Of a stretch of DNA of 64,000 nucleotides, positions 7,248 to 63,715 are shown piece after piece (position 1 is the first letter of the stretch; every line of letters starts with the position of its first letter). The stretch is from NCBI RefSeq assembly GCF_056746865.1, contig NZ_CM163382.1. One strand, written 5' to 3'. The notes under the pieces were generated by a model. The model was given only the letters and a program-made list of their open reading frames with translations, was not told the origin of the DNA and searched no databases. A program made the translations under genes and the position numbers.

Positions 7248-8029
7248 GCTGCCACCTTCTGCTCAGTGGCTTTCTGTTTCAGGAATCCAAGAGCTTTCAC
7301 TGCTTCGGCCTGTGTCAGTTCTGACGATGCGCGAATGTCGCGGCGAAATATCTGGGAACAGAGCGGCAATAAGTCGTCATCCCATGTTTTATCCAGGGCG
7401 ATCAGCAGAGTGTTAATCTCCTGCATGGTTTCATCGTTAACCGGAGTGATGTCGCGTTCCGGCTGACGTTCTGCAGTGTATGCGGTATTTTCGACAATGC
7501 GCTCGGCTTCATCCTTGTCATAGATACCAGCAAATCCGAAGGCCAGACGGGCACACTGAATCATGGCTTTATGACGTAACATCCGTTTGGGATGCGACTG
7601 CCACGGTCCGGTGATTTCTCTGCCTTCGCGGGTTTTGAATGGTTCGCGGCGGCATTCATCCATCCACTCGGTAACGCAGATCGGATGATTGCGGTCCTTG
7701 CGGTAAATCCGGCATGTGCAGGATTCATTGTCCTGCTCAAAGTCCATACCATCAAACTGCTGGTTTTCATTGATGATGCGGGACCAGCCATCAACGCCCA
7801 CCACCGGAACGATGCCATTCTGCTTATCAGGAAAGGCGTAAATTTCTTTCGTCCATGGATTAAGGCCGTACTGGTTGGCAACGATCAGTAATGCGATGAA
7901 CTGCGCATCGCTGGCATCACCTTTAAATGCCGTCTGGCGAAGAGTGGTGATCAGTTCCTGTGGGTCGACAGAATCCATGCCGACACGTTCAGCCAGCTTC
8001 CCTGCCAGCGTTGCGAGTGCTGTACTCAT
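7244..8029 (-). CDS. bet: recombination protein Bet (Red beta)
   Basis: 261-aa product recognised as lambda Bet; 4-bp overlap with exo. Confidence 0.95.
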
Positions 8030-8034
8030 CCGTT

Positions 8035-8331
8035 TTATACCTCTGAATCAATATCAACCTGGTGGTGAGCAATGGTTTCAACCATGTACCGGATGTGTTC
8101 TGCCATGCGCTCCTGAAACTCAACATCGTCATCAAACGCACGGGTAATGGCTTTTTTGCTGGCCCCGTGGCGTTGCAAATGATCGATGCATAGCGATTCA
8201 AACAGGTGCTGGGGCAGGCCTTTTTCCATGTCGTCTGCCAGTTCTGCCTCTTTCTCTTCACGGGCGATCTGCTGGTAGTGACGCGCCCAGCTCTGAGCCT
8301 CAAGACGATCCTGAATGTAATAAGCGTTCAT
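8035..8331 (-). CDS. gam: RecBCD inhibitor Gam (98-aa short form)
   Basis: [21 protein letters not shown]... matches lambda GamS. Confidence 0.9.
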
Positions 8332-57528: not shown

Positions 57529-57864
57529 ACAAAAACCTTACATTAACGCTGGTTATGTTTAGGGTGGCGTATATTAAGGTTTTTTATGAATTGTGACAGC
57601 TTTTTACCATTAATAGGTATGACTATTGCGGCACGTTATTTTTACACTGGTTATAAAAGTTGCCGTTTGCGTAGAATGTAGACAAAAGCGTGGTGTCAAG
57701 GAGGGGCGGTAAACGTCATAGTGAAGAGGAGTGGTGGCACCGATCAGGTCATCATGTAGTGTAAGCGTCTGGAGGAGGTGAGCAGGGGAGATCATTTTCC
57801 CCGTGCTGAACAAAAAGACGGCGTTGCTGTGGGTACAGGAAGGCTAACTTCATTTCTCTTTAGA

Positions 57865-58401
57865 TTATTTAAGTTTAATATTCAACCAGGAAATAAAGAA
57901 CGTTAAAATAACAAAGGAAAAAACAATCAAAGAGACATTCCTGAAAAATACGTGCTCATAAAAAAGATAAAAAACGTACAAAATTGGGCACGCAACTTTC
58001 AGGACGTTTATATGTTTAGAATTCTCTTTATCTTTAAAGTTAAAATTACATAAAAATATAAAGAAATATGAAAGCATGGCTGAAAACATCATTGATAAGG
58101 CGCGATATGGCAGTCCTGAATTAAAGGTTTCGACTCCTAATAATATTGTCGATAGCGTTGCAATTATAATTGCCACTTTTTTACTAGAGGTGAAAGTAAC
58201 GACAAAAAATATCAATGATATAAATAAGAAAGAAAAAAATATGTAAATATTTGTTGATATATGTACTTTATGAGGAACTGTAAAATAGGTATAACTGATT
58301 GTAATTATGATGGTAATTATTCTGTATAGCATGCATGCTAACAGGCCAATCAGTAGTTTGTTCGCAAATTTATAAGGGGATTCGCTATTGGTTGATTGCA
58401 T
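57865..58401 (-). CDS. hypothetical polytopic membrane protein (AT-rich islet)
   Basis: 178-aa very hydrophobic ORF in low-GC DNA. Confidence 0.5.
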   Translation of the reverse strand: MQSTNSESPYKFANKLLIGLLACMLYRIITIIITISYTYFTVPHKVHISTNIYIFFSFLFISLIFFVVTFTSSKKVAIIIATLSTILLGVETFNSGLPYRALSMMFSAMLSYFFIFLCNFNFKDKENSKHINVLKVACPILYVFYLFYEHVFFRNVSLIVFSFVILTFFISWLNIKLK

Positions 58402-58465
58402 GGTTATTATGCTCTTGAATTGTGTATTTTATTGGAATGTTTCTTGGTTAACTAAAACAATGCAT

Positions 58466-58894
58466 TTAATAGGTGGTGGTGTAAATATCAATGTCATACT
58501 CATTATCACAGACTACTATTACTCTACGAGTTATGTCAAAAAATAACGTTAAATCATAGGTTCCCTGTTCTCTGAAAATACTCTGCGCAAATGACGTGAA
58601 ATTATTCCCATTTATAACTATTTTTACTTTACCTTCATAGATAAGCCAGCAACGAAAACATTCAGCTGTACCAGATAATGTCACTATCTGACTGATTAGA
58701 AGATTTATATTTACCGGATGAGGTAAAAAAAGTCTGTCGTTGAGGCAATCAATATTATGTGTTTGATGAAACTCTTTTCTCATTAATGAAGAGTTATCAT
58801 ATAGCAGGGTTATACTAAACGAGTCAATTCCGTCAAGCTTTTGCATAAATTTGTTTGCTTTATAAATAAGCAACTTTGCTTGTGTTTTTGTCAT
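58466..58894 (-). CDS. hypothetical protein, possible orphan immunity protein
   Basis: 142-aa ORF in AT-rich array next to H-repeat/Rhs remnants. Confidence 0.4.
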   Translation of the reverse strand: MTKTQAKLLIYKANKFMQKLDGIDSFSITLLYDNSSLMRKEFHQTHNIDCLNDRLFLPHPVNINLLISQIVTLSGTAECFRCWLIYEGKVKIVINGNNFTSFAQSIFREQGTYDLTLFFDITRRVIVVCDNEYDIDIYTTTY

Positions 58895-58921
58895 GATGGT
58901 GATCTTTTATGCAAGGGGGAA

Positions 58922-59368
58922 TTATTGGAATTCAAATGTTTTATATTCCTCTGTAATCATCTTTAAACTTAACATAGCCATGTCTCGGGTATCTTCATCA
59001 TCAGATTGTAGAGAAATATTTAATCCTTTAATTAAGGTGTTATCGGGAAAAGCCATTGCCAATAATGTACACCAACATCGGACACTTTTTATTGTCAGAG
59101 GATTTTCCAGTATGTTGGCGATATTTGAAGCTATAATGTTTTTATCACACTTGTACAAAAAATCTTCGACCAACTGATATACACCGAAGCCATCACCTTC
59201 CCCAAACGATTGTAAAAATAACGGTATGGCTTCTTCAGCAGGATTTGCAGAAAAATAAAGCCTTACATTGTTATATTTATTGATAAGTTCCTGAGTGATG
59301 TCATAATCATTTGGCATAGGTTGGTTTAGAGCAAGGAATGCTAATGCTTCTTTTTTAGTCATATTCAT
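58922..59368 (-). CDS. hypothetical protein, possible orphan immunity protein
   Basis: 148-aa ORF in AT-rich array next to H-repeat/Rhs remnants. Confidence 0.4.
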   Translation of the reverse strand: MNMTKKEALAFLALNQPMPNDYDITQELINKYNNVRLYFSANPAEEAIPLFLQSFGEGDGFGVYQLVEDFLYKCDKNIIASNIANILENPLTIKSVRCWCTLLAMAFPDNTLIKGLNISLQSDDEDTRDMAMLSLKMITEEYKTFEFQ

Positions 59369-60179
59369 AATGGTTAATATTGCTTGCTGGAAGAATTAAG
59401 GTAAAAATGGTTCATAGACAGAATTAAATAGGAAGTCTTGTTTCCAGATAACTTTATCATGAAAAAGAGATTTGGCTTGATGCGTATAAAGATTATGAGG
59501 ATAAATAGTTTCTCCACCATAAATGATGTTCTTTCCCGTTACACCGGAGAATTCATTGGCTATAATCTGTCGTTTAAGCCAGTGAATGACTTTACATAAG
59601 CATATTAATTTATCCTTAGAATCAGTTGTGTTAATTTCAGTAAGTTGTAAAATCTTTTCCCCATTATACTCAACTAAATGCCCCGGCTTTATTTCAATTC
59701 AACCACAATAACGATCAATGCTACTAAACTTTATTCTTCTATTGTTAGGTTTAATGCTGGGCATAAGATAAATTCGATGTGCTACGGCAGGGATCTTTTC
59801 TGTTAAGACATTTAATTGCTTAGAGTATTCATCTTGTAGTGTAAACCAAATTGAATGTAATTTGTATTTTGAGGCTACAATCGCGAGCCAATTAGACAGT
59901 TCCTCGTTCGTGCAAAAAACATTTATCCTGGCAGTTGCCATTCGTAATCCTTTTTATATAAGATTGTGTGAATGTCACCGAAACAACTTGATATGAATAA
60001 AATAGCTAAAGCGAAATGGATGACGTGTTACTAAAAAACCATTCTGAAAAGGAAGCCTGAATAAACGCGATGACGAAACTTCCACTCTCCATGTTTCATC
60101 AGAAAAATAACTAAATTCGATGTGGTTTTCATATAATCTCATTTCACGTAAGGTTCCGCTACCATAAGGGACCGCAATC

Positions 60180-61470
60180 AGGGAAAGATTACGAAAGCCC
60201 GCTCCCAGCAAGGACTGACGCCAGATAGTTTCTGTCCATGGCTGCTTTTCGCATCTTACGTCTTAACCCTGCCTTGAATACCTTATCATTCGTCAAAATA
60301 TTAATAGCGATGTGCCGTATCCCTGAAAATAATTCTGCGGCGTTTCCTCTTCTTATTTTGCAGTCGTCTTCATTCATTACCACGTCCAGACGCCAGTGCA
60401 GCTTATTCTCCACGTGCCAGCGGTTTCGGATTGCTGTGGCGAACTTCTCTGCGGTTAAATCAGCAGAACTGATATAATATCTGACCGTCATTTCTGGCTC
60501 TTTCTTTTGTTCTGCTATTATTGACCGAAAGGAGACTGCCACGCATAATTTCTTCAGACCTTTCCATTCAAACGTGAAATCAATAAGTTCATCAGGGACA
60601 TCGCAAACAATGTGAAGACGGATTTCTTCTCTGCCGTGACTCTTTTCACTAATTGCGTAACTGTCATGCTCTGGATTATTTAATTCTTTCAGTGGGAATT
60701 TTTCCTCAAAGGCTTTATTAAGCCGCCCCTGATTTCCTTTTACAGCGAATAAATAATCACCGCCCTGTTTTTGTATCTTCTCTGCAATATCTTTCTGGCA
60801 ACCCATCGCATCAGTTGTGATGATTTTTCCTTTAATATCCAGCATGTTAAGAAGTTCAGGGATAGCTGTAATCTCATTTGATTTCTCATCCGTCCTGATC
60901 TGTCCGATGACCAGACTGTGCATTGTTGAGAACGCACTAATGACATGAATCGCTCCCTTGCGGCGACTCTTGTCATAAGAATGCCGGAGTGTTTTTCCAT
61001 CAATTGCGATGACGTCTTTATCATCTGAAGAATGGCAGTCACGCATCCAGTTAATAAAGCACTCGTGAAATTTTGCAGGACTGATACAGGATACAACTCT
61101 GGCAATAGTATCGTGAACAGGAATACCATTATCAAAATCACCATATTGCTTCAAAAAATCGAGATGTGTTTCCCCAAAATCCTCTATATCTTCCCAGCCT
61201 TCTGCACCCGAAATAACGGCACAAATAGTCAACAGTAGAATATCCGATAATTTATGTTCCACTTTCCAGGCTTGTCTGTAATCGGGGATAATAGAAATAT
61301 GTTCCATCAATTTTTTAAGTTCCATTTTGTTCTCCTTAATTATGTAAGGAGTATTTGATCATGTATAAGCAATAAAAAACAGCTTCAGGTAATGAGGAAT
61401 ATCTCAATTTGTAAACATAAAATGCGAATTATTTAGTACAAAAAGTGTACTTCTGATGATCTTTCCCTGG
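60180..61470 (-). mobile_element. H-repeat (Rhs-associated ISAs1-family) element, copy 1
   Basis: About 1.29 kb repeated at 62331-63620 with high identity; contains intact 378-aa transposase ORF. Confidence 0.8.
60189..61325 (-). CDS. H-repeat-associated ISAs1-family transposase
   Basis: 378-aa product recognised as YhhI/YdcC/YbfD-type H-rpt protein. Confidence 0.85.
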
Positions 61471-61673
61471 GAGGTGATACTGACCGTCTGCCCGAATTCG
61501 TCATAGAGGAAAAACGTCGCGCCGCCCTCCGGGTCAATTTCACACACCGGAAGCCGGTCTTCACTGAAGCGGATAATGGTGGTATGCCCCAGCGAATCAG
61601 TCATCTCCAGCTCATGGCAGAAATCATTCCATACAAAGTGGTAGTCGTAGTACCCGCCGTCGCCCAACAGCAA
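61404..61673 (-). pseudogene. Rhs repeat fragment
   Basis: 89-aa ORF with YD-repeat-like segments (FFLYDEFGQTVSI; IIRFSEDRLPVCEIDPEGG). Confidence 0.45.
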
Positions 61674-61690
61674 TCAATCATCGAATCAAA

Positions 61691-62152
61691 TTAACTTGAC
61701 AAGGTTTTTATTTTTTCGTGTTCGAAAAATAAATGTAGCATAGCGTCATTAATATTACCGCCTATAATACAAAAATAGTTATCAAAACCACCATAAAGAG
61801 CACCATCATCTGAAATAAAATATGTCATATGCTCAGAAAAACCAACACCAACAGGACATAAACGCTTATTGACCAATGGTTCATAGACTTCAGTTATCCA
61901 TTTAGAGTCTATCCAACCAGCAGCTTTTATTGGATCAAAATCGGATTTATCATACTCATTAGGATCTGAATAAGATTCATGCCGTACTATCAACCCTCCA
62001 AACTCTGATAAAAAATCACAAATAATTTCATTAACAAAATATTTCTTAATGGATAAACACTTTATATATTTATCTATGTTTTCTTTTCTGCCATAGTGCC
62101 ATCCATTTTGCAACAGGACACTCATCACTTGTTTATTCGTTATATGATTCAT
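61691..62152 (-). CDS. hypothetical protein, possible SUKH/Smi1-like immunity protein
   Basis: 153-aa AT-rich ORF between H-rpt copies next to an Rhs fragment; family assignment tentative. Confidence 0.4.
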   Translation of the reverse strand: MNHITNKQVMSVLLQNGWHYGRKENIDKYIKCLSIKKYFVNEIICDFLSEFGGLIVRHESYSDPNEYDKSDFDPIKAAGWIDSKWITEVYEPLVNKRLCPVGVGFSEHMTYFISDDGALYGGFDNYFCIIGGNINDAMLHLFFEHEKIKTLSS

Positions 62153-62339
62153 AATTACCCCGTTAATACATTAATTCCTAAATATTTGAAAATTTCCTGA
62201 CAGTTTCTACAGTTCGGAAAAGCACTTCCATCACCAGTATGAACTGTAGCCATTTCCAAATCATGCAACGATGAATTATCTTTGAGAGCTTTATTCACCG
62301 CATCTATTTCAGCACAATTATTAACAGCCCAAGGCAAGA

Positions 62340-63476
62340 TTACGAAAGCCCGCACCCCGCAAGGACTGCCGCCAGGTAGTTTCTGTCCATGGCTGCTTTT
62401 CGCATCTTACGTCTTAACCCTGCCTTGAATACCTTATCATTCGTTAAAATATTAATAGCGATGTGCCGTATCCCTGAAAATAATTCTGCGGCGTTTCCTC
62501 TTCTTATTTTGCAGTCGTCTTCATTCATTACCACGTCCAGACGCCAGTGCAGCTTATTCTCCACGTGCCAGTGGTTTCGGATTGCTGTGGCGAACTTCTC
62601 TGCGGTTAAATCAGCAGAACTGATATAATATCTGACCGTCATTTCTGGCTCTTTCTTTTGTTCTGCTATTATTGACCGAAAGGAGACTGCCACGCATAAT
62701 TTCTTCAGACCTTTCCATTCAAACGTGAAATCAATAAGTTCATCAGGGACATCGCAAACAATGTGAAGACGGATTTCTTCTCTGCCGTGACTCTTTTCAC
62801 TCATTGCGTAACTGTTATGCTCTGGATTATTTAATTCTTTCAGTGGGAATTTTTCCTCGAAGGCTTTATTTAGCCGCCCCTGGTTTCTTTTTACAGCGAA
62901 TAAATAATCACCGCCCTGTTTTTGTATCTTCTCTGCAATATCTTTCTGGCAACCCATCGTATCAGTTGTGATGATTTTTCCTTTAATATCCAGCATGTTA
63001 AGAAGTTATGGGATAGCTGTAATCTCATTAGATTTCTCATCCGTCTTGATCTGTCCGATGACCAGACTGTGCATTGTTGAGAACGCACTAATGACATGAA
63101 TCGCTCCCCTGCGGCGACTCTTGTCATAATAGTGCCGGAGCGTTTTTCCATCAATTGCGATGACGTCTTTATCATCTGAAGTATGGCAATCTCGCATCCA
63201 GTTAATAAAGCACTCGTGAAATTTTGCAGGACTGATACAGGATACAACTCTGGCAATGGTATCGTGGACAGGCATACCATTTTCAAAATCACCATATTGC
63301 TTCAAAAAATCGATATGTGTTTCACCAAAATCCTCTATATCTTCCCAACCTTCTGCACCCGAAATAACGGCACAAATAGTCAACAGTAGAATATCCGATA
63401 ATTTATGTTCCACTTTCCAGGCTTGTCTGTAATCGGGGGTAATAGAAATATGTTCCATCAATTTTTTAAGTTCCAT
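62340..63476 (-). pseudogene. H-repeat transposase, copy 2, interrupted by an in-frame stop
   Basis: Two ORFs (63006-63476 and 62340-62996) together colinear with the intact copy; stop where copy 1 reads ELLN. Confidence 0.8.
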
Positions 63477-63715
63477 TTTTTTCTCCTTAATTATGTAAGG
63501 AGTATTTGATCATGTATAAGCAATAAAAAACAGCTTCAGGTAATGAGGAATATCTCAATTTTTAAACATAAAATGCGAATTATTTAGTACAAAAAAGCAG
63601 CGTTACGTGATCTTTCCCTGACAGCAAACTGAATACAGAAACATATTGGTTGGAAATGCTATTTGACAGCAGATCCCGGTGGGCCTGCCACCATCTCTTC
63701 ACAAGCTTATGCTTA

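Follow-up and report, generated by a model that had tools for sequence, protein, structure and literature searches.

An insertion-sequence-fragmented remnant of Rhs-type toxin/immunity cassettes between nfrB and cusS in Escherichia coli

Genes and features of the nfrB–cusS islet

We analysed an AT-rich islet that lies next to nfrB in a 64,000-nucleotide stretch of Escherichia coli DNA (NCBI RefSeq assembly GCF_056746865.1, contig NZ_CM163382.1; this whole stretch is called the window below). The islet carries two insertion sequences (IS) of the ISAs1/ISEc1 (H-repeat) type, pieces of Rhs toxin modules and a series of small open reading frames (ORFs). In a RefSeq genome identical to the window, it occupies about 10.6 kb between nfrB and cusS with all genes on the same strand, and the region studied here is its nfrB-proximal 6.2 kb. 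The nfrB/cusS interval is conserved Rhs position 4 in E. coli (Table 3 of Jackson et al. 2009, PMC2935791), and is a recognised Rhs/type VI secretion system (T6SS) effector locus of this species. In the identical RefSeq genome, however, neither an intact rhs gene nor a full-length rhs with PAAR, core and DPxGL motif and a linked vgrG was found from nfrB to cusS, indicating that the locus is a remnant and not a functional Rhs element. An earlier note on the window had suggested looking for an intact rhs gene past the window end; none was present up to cusS. The islet is an IS-fragmented remnant of Rhs-type toxin/immunity cassettes, without a delivery-competent toxin. Its features are the following (aa, amino acids; CT, C-terminal toxin domain).

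57787–57864, no strand: nfrB-proximal islet boundary; the sequence common to most E. coli stops at 57786
57865–58401, minus strand: ORF A, 178 aa, polytopic membrane protein with four strongly hydrophobic segments
58466–58894, minus strand: ORF B, 142 aa, Escherichia-only, candidate orphan immunity gene by position
58922–59368, minus strand: ORF C, 148 aa, helical (HEAT-like), orphan immunity gene by context, unannotated Enterobacterales family
59396–59941, minus strand: ORF D pseudogene, 181-codon frame with W81 changed to a stop at 59699–59701, candidate immunity gene
59975–60178, minus strand: 3' part (67 codons) left of a stand-alone ORF of 151 aa that IS copy 1 interrupts
60179–61469, minus strand: IS copy 1, ISAs1-family ISEc1 (H-repeat), 1,291 bp, intact 378-aa transposase at 60189–61325
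61470–61673, minus strand: Rhs YD-repeat fragment (TIGR01643), the 5' beginning of an orphan Rhs toxin module that breaks off at IS copy 1
61691–62152, minus strand: SUKH-3 immunity gene (PF14433), 153 aa, intact
62155–62334, minus strand: C-terminal half of a YwqJ-like deaminase-fold Rhs-CT toxin, partial match to PF14431
62330–63620, minus strand: IS copy 2, ISAs1/ISEc1 pseudo-element, 1,291 bp, transposase with a stop at E157

The limits of the islet were apparent from base composition and from comparison with other genomes. The AT-rich block from 57787 to 60178 has a GC content of 32.9% and the SUKH-3/toxin segment one of 32.2%, as compared with 52% for nfrB and 48% for the whole window; the values are 54% for the Rhs fragment and 40% for the ISs. 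About 5,000 genomes align only over 57560–57786 or less. Of 5,426 complete E. coli genomes, about 150 (~2.8%) carry the islet; it is at least 99% identical in each and occurs as a single copy, always at the same chromosomal site and never on a plasmid. The carriers, which include strain 042 and an isolate of sequence type 69 (ST69), came from humans, poultry, water and wild birds. A 6.6-kb stretch recurs with 100% identity in many complete E. coli chromosomes, indicating that the arrangement is not due to chance.

Other states of the locus were found in related strains. In K-12-like strains the nfrB–cusS interval is reduced to 148 bp. In O157:H7 it contains vgrG, a DcrB-like gene, a gene for a 1,616-aa Rhs protein, an immunity gene, an orphan zincin-like toxin and an ISAs1 element, one end of which adjoins the position equivalent to window 57786. 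The O157:H7 locus is thus like the islet in its site, its gene orientation and its nfrB-proximal ISAs1 abutting the same boundary. Unlike the islet, it keeps vgrG, the DcrB-like chaperone, the Rhs protein with its immunity gene and the orphan toxin, and among the window cassettes none but the IS was matched in it by blastn. The comparison with other E. coli Rhs loci, which had been advised earlier, thus revealed an intact vgrG-DcrB-rhs locus at the same site. Other Escherichia lineages have shorter arrays with some of the same small genes together with SUKH-1, CdiI_N or Imm57 genes and with whole or fragmentary ISAs1 elements. E. fergusonii has such an array beside cusS, with nfrB missing. Of the two flanking genes, the E. 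albertii contig extends to nfrB alone and that of Escherichia sp. MOD1-EC7003 to neither. In E. coli MS20675, a cerebrospinal fluid isolate (locus L002), everything from the middle of the SUKH-3 gene (left of 62190) toward nfrB is replaced by an IS1 copy that adjoins lambdoid prophage genes and a porin gene. It represents a variant of the islet that arose by an IS1-associated deletion or rearrangement.

The two ISAs1/ISEc1 copies and the segment they bracket

The two IS copies are direct repeats that differ at 46 of 1,291 positions (96.4% identity). The transposase of copy 1 matched the ISAs1-family profile NF033564 with 409.9 bits (cutoff 70) and the Pfam domains DDE_Tnp_1_assoc and DDE_Tnp_1, and is named 'ISAs1-like element ISEc1 family transposase' in RefSeq. 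The two H-repeats of roughly 1.29 kb recognised in the earlier note are therefore ISAs1/ISEc1 elements of 1,291 bp; the coordinates given there (60180–61470 and 62331–63620) were off by 1 nt, and its description of copy 1 as intact and of the copy 2 transposase as split by an in-frame stop was correct. This stop, at codon 157 (63006–63008), leaves ORFs of 156 and 218 aa, and the NCBI Prokaryotic Genome Annotation Pipeline (PGAP) marks copy 2 with an 'internal stop'. The two transposases differ by 16 amino acids, the E157 stop included.

According to ISfinder, members of the ISAs1 family are ~1.2–1.5 kb long, with terminal inverted repeats starting with CAGGG, and both copies agree with this description in their length and CAGGG terminus. 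Elements of this family are flanked by a target-site duplication of 8–10 bp. Copy 1 has the termini CAGGGAAAGAT...ATCTTTCCCTG and carries CAGGGAAAGAT at each end, as a terminal inverted repeat. Copy 2 has CAGGGAAAGAT at one end, while its transposase-distal terminus, CAAGGCAAGAT, is imperfect, with CAAGGC in place of CAGGGA. Ten of the 46 differences between the copies are grouped in a 12-nt patch at IS positions 14–25 (61456–61445 in copy 1, 63607–63596 in copy 2). This patch sits just inside the transposase-proximal terminal repeat, and its copy 2 version resembles the other end of the element.

Target-site duplications were searched for around copy 1, copy 2 and the pair, cross-pairs of flanks included, and no direct repeat of at least 6 bp was detected; the flanks of copy 2 share only GCTGT, a 5-nt coincidence. 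This absence fits secondary rearrangement, and not a lack of membership in the ISAs1 family. In addition, the flanks of each IS were contiguous in no other genome examined. Together, these two results indicate that the ISs mark junctions produced by rearrangement, deletion or recombination rather than simple insertions. Copy 1 joins unrelated sequences: on one side the next orphan Rhs module, of which the initial 200 bp are present, and on the other the 151-aa ORF, of which the 3' end is present; copy 2 sits where the deaminase-like Rhs C-terminal toxin is halved. The two copies do bracket an 860-bp segment (61470–62329), in line with the earlier description of H-repeats flanking an Rhs fragment and small ORFs, but they also truncate genes on both sides. 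The 1.29-kb ISAs1/ISEc1 element is the classical H-repeat of Rhs elements, and H-repeats are partly defective, their transposition not having been demonstrated (PMC3032704).

Related junctions were seen in two other Escherichia loci. The ISAs1 element beside cusS in E. fergusonii (L019 6543–7856, aligned with window 61496–60179) shares with copy 1 a 26-bp flank of Rhs-fragment sequence, so that this junction either predates the E. fergusonii and E. coli lineages or was transferred between them. In Escherichia sp. MOD1-EC7003 (L024), two 87-bp transposase-proximal ISAs1 ends (1989–2075 and 2650–2736), 92% identical to window 63621–63535, bracket an Imm57 gene. These solo ends may point to repeated IS-mediated shuffling at the locus.

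Both the Rhs fragment and the immunity gene of the 860-bp segment were assigned by profile matches. The 204 bp left of the former matched the YD-repeat model TIGR01643 with 17.2 bits (cutoff 15.8), and the Salmonella ORFs that align to it match RHS_repeat with 83.6 bits. The SUKH-3 protein matched PF14433 with 46.6 bits (gathering score 23) over profile positions 3–143 of 146. An Rhs YD-repeat fragment and a possibly SUKH/Smi1-like ORF had both been noticed before, and these matches bear the two assignments out. A match of the Rhs fragment to BrxL/Lon was dismissed as spurious (21 bits, under 25).

The toxin remnant is part of a 66-aa ORF (62155–62355) that begins inside IS copy 2 and of which the non-IS part runs from 62334 to 62155. 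It stops 2 nt before the SUKH-3 gene. The remnant matched PF14431 with 21.2 bits over profile positions 68–134 of 138, below the gathering score of 25.9; the full-length homologues from Salmonella (24.3 bits) and Xenorhabdus (15.8 bits) also remain under this score. The active site of deaminases is formed by a [CH]xE motif in helix 2 and a downstream CxxC zinc motif (PMC3239186). Motifs of both kinds are retained in the remnant, as NNCAEID (CAE) and PNCRNC (CxxC), and are also kept in the homologues P0223 and P0224. The remnant is best described as deaminase-fold, YwqJ-like. Sequence searches of the PDB with the deaminase-like CT and with SUKH-3 returned nothing meaningful.

The only database relatives of the remnant are from Salmonella enterica and Xenorhabdus bovienii. 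In Xenorhabdus (L023), an Rhs-associated core end (TIGR03696, 81.3 bits) with a 115-aa CT at 7536–8201 is followed by SUKH-3, and this pair lies downstream of VgrG-DcrB-PAAR-Rhs. The Salmonella array (L022) consists of a 726-aa Rhs fragment, a 120-aa CT (7839–8201; the YwqJ match of 24.3 bits, and dCMP_cyt_deam_1 with an E value of 0.002), SUKH-3, a 258-aa orphan Rhs-AHH nuclease and Imm11. Three alignments at the DNA level connect it to the window.

Window 62334–61689 and L022 8022–8667: 83% identity
Window 61665–61469 (Rhs fragment) and the start of the L022 Rhs-AHH orphan: 82% identity
Window 61621–61471 and the start of a second Salmonella orphan: 90% identity

SUKH-3 therefore lies directly downstream of a polymorphic-toxin CT in the window, in Salmonella and in Xenorhabdus. 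The islet is like both arrays in having the same deaminase-like CT and SUKH-3 pair, and like the Salmonella array in having the same Rhs orphan start after this pair (82–90% DNA identity). It is unlike them in that their CT is full length, attached or adjacent to the Rhs core end and free of IS interruption, and in that the next orphan (Rhs-AHH with Imm11) is complete in the comparison arrays. In the window, homology to the toxin breaks off at 62334, the N-terminal half and the delivery domain being gone at the copy 2 junction. We conclude that the segment between the ISs is one slice taken from an Rhs orphan array of the Salmonella type. The toxin lost its N-terminal half and its delivery part to copy 2; copy 1 left only 204 bp of the orphan toxin that comes next, and removed the immunity gene of that toxin as well. 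As a side observation, genes of the SymE-toxin family dot the Rhs orphan arrays on the opposite strand (L022 4943–5251 and 10240–10542; L023 10718–11038), and the window, unlike these arrays, contains none.

Stand-alone small genes between nfrB and copy 1

The earlier note had described AT-rich ORFs, including one for a polytopic membrane protein, between nfrB and copy 1 and had suggested that the small ORFs could encode immunity proteins. The block is indeed AT-rich and ORF A does contain four hydrophobic segments. As for an immunity function, context supports it for the 148-aa (ORF C) family and, with differences between members, for the 181-aa (ORF D) family, while for the 142-aa (ORF B) and 178-aa (ORF A) ORFs the argument is one of position only.

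The family of ORF C comprises 19 clusters, all from Enterobacterales. In Cronobacter, the gene for a homologue (P0103, 59% identity) shares 22 nt with the 3' end of an orphan Rhs gene, which codes for 427 aa with Rhs_assc_core (92.9 bits) and a 120-aa CT. This is the single clear toxin-adjoining case, the other homologues being found in arrays of small ORFs. None of 13 members had a significant Pfam match, the best being a HEAT repeat with an E value of 0.044 in one member, and the family profile matched no PDB sequence at E < 0.06.

ORF D is colinear with intact 181-aa genes elsewhere and shares 93.6% DNA identity with one of them (L006); an 80-aa ORF at 59699–59941 corresponds to the part ahead of the W81 stop. 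Its family forms 108 clusters at 50% identity, all of them stand-alone proteins of ~180 aa, and none of 63 members had a Pfam match. An AlphaFold2 (AF2) model of the 181-aa protein was confident, with a predicted local distance difference test score (pLDDT) of 92.4, but had no convincing structural neighbour, and the profile gave no meaningful match among PDB sequences. The genomic contexts differ between members. One member (P0116) has a 23-nt overlap with the end of a gene for Rhs_assc_core (64 bits) and a 230-aa CT, another (P0120) stands after Imm11, and the Escherichia copies are located among SUKH-1, CdiI_N and Imm57 genes. The surroundings of P0117 gave no indication, and those of P0122 are unrelated. 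The 181-aa protein was also considered as the toxin partner of ORF C. This was rejected: the protein has no similarity to the Cronobacter Rhs-CT and its family consists of stand-alone proteins of uniform length.

The 151-aa ORF, of which only the 3' end remains in the window, is intact in Escherichia sp. MOD1-EC7003 (L024 781–1236). Homology with the window starts precisely at the IS boundary, and the ORF had no Pfam match. ORF B belongs to a family of 5 clusters, all from Escherichia, which is always found beside cusS and, in E. coli, at nfrB–cusS; its AF2 model, built on a 4-sequence alignment, was unusable (pLDDT 45). Neither ORF A nor ORF B matched Pfam or NCBIfam. ORF A is intact in the window and interrupted by a stop or a frameshift in L016, L018 and L013. 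One source names it 'lysylphosphatidylglycerol synthetase-like (DUF2156)', a name to which the Pfam scan gave no support. PGAP calls a 56-aa ORF on the plus strand (58076–58246) instead of ORF A, which is called in other GenBank submissions. Three or four of the small ORFs thus belong to families absent from Pfam, two of them with contextual evidence for an immunity function, a mildly novel result.

Selective constraint was estimated as the ratio of nonsynonymous to synonymous substitution rates (dN/dS) by the Nei-Gojobori method. The values were 0.065 for SUKH-3 (versus Salmonella), 0.10–0.22 for ORF C (four lineages; the comparison with Hafnia was saturated), 0.29–0.45 for ORF B (two lineages) and 0.17 for the full frame of ORF D (versus L006). 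ORF D combines a low value with only one stop codon, which suggests that it was inactivated recently. Promoter and terminator scans showed no enrichment over shuffled sequence, and no Rfam match was found.

Interpretation and related loci

The earlier reading of the region as a decayed Rhs orphan toxin/immunity array is upheld by the published Rhs locus, by the intact O157:H7 locus and by the synteny with the Salmonella and Xenorhabdus arrays. The most probable history is the following. An array of Rhs polymorphic-toxin cassettes, each with a toxin CT and its cognate immunity gene, would once have occupied the nfrB–cusS site. The main vgrG/rhs genes would then have been lost, and ISAs1/ISEc1 elements would have broken up the remaining array. 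At the copy 2 junction the deaminase-like toxin is cut in half and its SUKH-3 gene is intact. Downstream of copy 1 stand four small genes in a row, three of them intact and the fourth put out of action not long ago by a nonsense codon. The products of SUKH-3, ORF C and perhaps ORF B and ORF A may bind and neutralise matching toxins from rival Enterobacteriaceae. In that case the decaying islet would serve as a passive array for defence, unable to attack since no delivery-competent toxin is left.

We consider it reasonably probable that this remnant still contains useful immunity genes. The defensive role of the surviving orphan genes is inferred. Supernumerary SUKH genes have been proposed to neutralise incoming toxins (PMC3113570), and two further papers describe stand-alone immunity genes in other taxa, the Rhs orphan immunity genes of Serratia (PMC10539506) and those of gut Bacteroidales (PMC12247911), as proposed or shown to protect against non-self toxins. 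The islet resembles these systems, as well as the tandem SUKH arrays (PMC3113570), in its series of unrelated stand-alone immunity genes without cognate toxins. It differs from orphan immunity arrays in that it is visibly decaying and is not on a mobile element, and any protection it may confer is a candidate function.

Several results weigh against a retained function. About 97% of complete E. coli genomes are without the islet, which is therefore dispensable. Decay is ongoing, as seen from the nonsense codon of ORF D and from the truncation of the 151-aa ORF and of both toxins, and ORF A is disrupted in other lineages. No toxin-linked context was found for ORF A or ORF B, ORF A having been compared with related loci only, and one member of the 181-aa family (P0122, in L026) lies in an unrelated context. 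The dN/dS values compare lineages and so show past, not necessarily present, constraint. The promoter scan detected fewer consensus sites than in shuffled sequence, and the genes upstream of the surviving ORFs are interrupted by ISs. The 874-aa protein encoded upstream of P0122 is unrelated to the L020 toxin.

Several of these features would also fit a pure relic, which would have the same origin but contain nothing functional, its intact ORFs merely not yet hit and its DNA drifting to loss. Such a relic would account for the nonsense codon, the truncations at both ISs, the degradation of ORF A in sister lineages, the restriction of the islet to ~2.8% of genomes and the lack of promoter enrichment, and also for the many alternative, shorter states of the locus, one of them with an IS1-associated deletion. 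It accounts less well for SUKH-3, ORF C and ORF B, which are full-length with dN/dS well under 1 even though the dS to their homologues ranges from 0.2 to more than 1, or for the identity of at least 99% over ~150 genomes from humans, poultry, water and wild birds. We regard the pure relic as a serious but minority possibility.

Two further explanations appear very improbable. In the first, the two direct ISEc1 copies would form a composite transposon that moves the 860-bp SUKH-3 segment as a mobile immunity cassette. The same orientation of the ISs, the intact transposase of copy 1 and the fact that the segment is closer to Salmonella than to E. coli sequence would suit such a unit. However, it occurs once per genome, at one chromosomal site and on no plasmid; target-site duplications are lacking at either IS and at the pair; copy 2 has an imperfect outer end and a dead transposase; and the cargo is cut at both ends, as would be expected if ISs had inserted or recombined into an array that was already there and is syntenic with that of Salmonella. 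In the second, the orphan Rhs fragment and cassettes would be kept as a recombination reservoir, in order to swap C-terminal toxins into a full-length rhs elsewhere, a role that Koskiniemi et al. 2014 are said to have described for orphan Rhs of Salmonella. The accepted way in which rhs genes diversify is that orphan cassettes displace the C-terminus (PMC2935791, PMC3113570), and an Rhs core fragment does lie at 61470–61673, but no complete toxin CT is left in the window, and the fragment, 204 bp long and cut by copy 1, had no other E. coli match even in the distant mode of blastn. At the DNA level, no rhs at least 80% identical to 61470–61673 was found in these strains, and the fragment therefore has no recombination partner in these genomes.

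We return to the islet as a remnant whose immunity genes may still be useful. A bolder extension is that the 148-aa, 181-aa and 151-aa families, possibly with ORF B and ORF A, are undescribed Rhs/T6SS immunity families, and that the islet is a defence array acquired against the Rhs toxins of Salmonella, Cronobacter, Xenorhabdus and similar competitors in a lineage including strain 042. We put this forward tentatively and would not be surprised to see it fail.

Elements of this kind have long been known. The K-12 elements RhsB, RhsC and RhsE reportedly consist, in the descriptions of Zhao et al. 1993 and Wang et al. 1998, of a core, C-terminal tips, partial cores and H-rpt/ISEc1. A summary of these H-repeat-bearing elements is given in PMC3032704. 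Like them, the islet has AT-rich C-terminal tips and small ORFs, partial GC-rich core fragments and a distal 1.29-kb H-rpt/ISAs1. Unlike them, it is without a full-length rhs core, both of its H-rpt copies are at truncation junctions, and its Rhs fragment is of a Salmonella-like type and not of an E. coli clade. The islet is an ordinary case of this well-known kind, Rhs elements that carry H-repeats and orphan cassettes, and it sits at an Rhs locus already published.

Its main value lies in annotation and in the reconstruction of how the locus changed. The states found at this hotspot can be arranged as a stepwise decay, from the complete vgrG-rhs locus of O157:H7 through IS-fragmented remnants such as the islet and immunity-only arrays to the empty site of K-12. 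Two candidate toxin-immunity pairs are proposed, SUKH-3 with the deaminase-like Rhs-CT and the ORF C family with the 120-aa Cronobacter Rhs-CT, and no Pfam entry covers the 181-aa family with its 108 clusters. Should the orphan immunity genes prove active, the islet would add evidence that gut E. coli gather defences against the contact-dependent toxins of other bacteria, a concept that is already established.

The other half of the islet extends past the window. Its first element is a 92-aa ORF on the minus strand (63716–63994), which resembles a C-terminal fragment of a beta-ketoacyl-synthase-like protein (NF004798, E value 2e-8, positions 274–344 of 349). The whole cusS-proximal half (L001 18721–22648) is a second graveyard of toxin parts, with a 336-aa propeller-like protein, a 104-aa Tox-PAAR-like fragment, two paralogous 346-aa 'WD40/YVTN/BNR-like' proteins and a 99-aa Tox-GHH2 nuclease fragment, followed by cusS.

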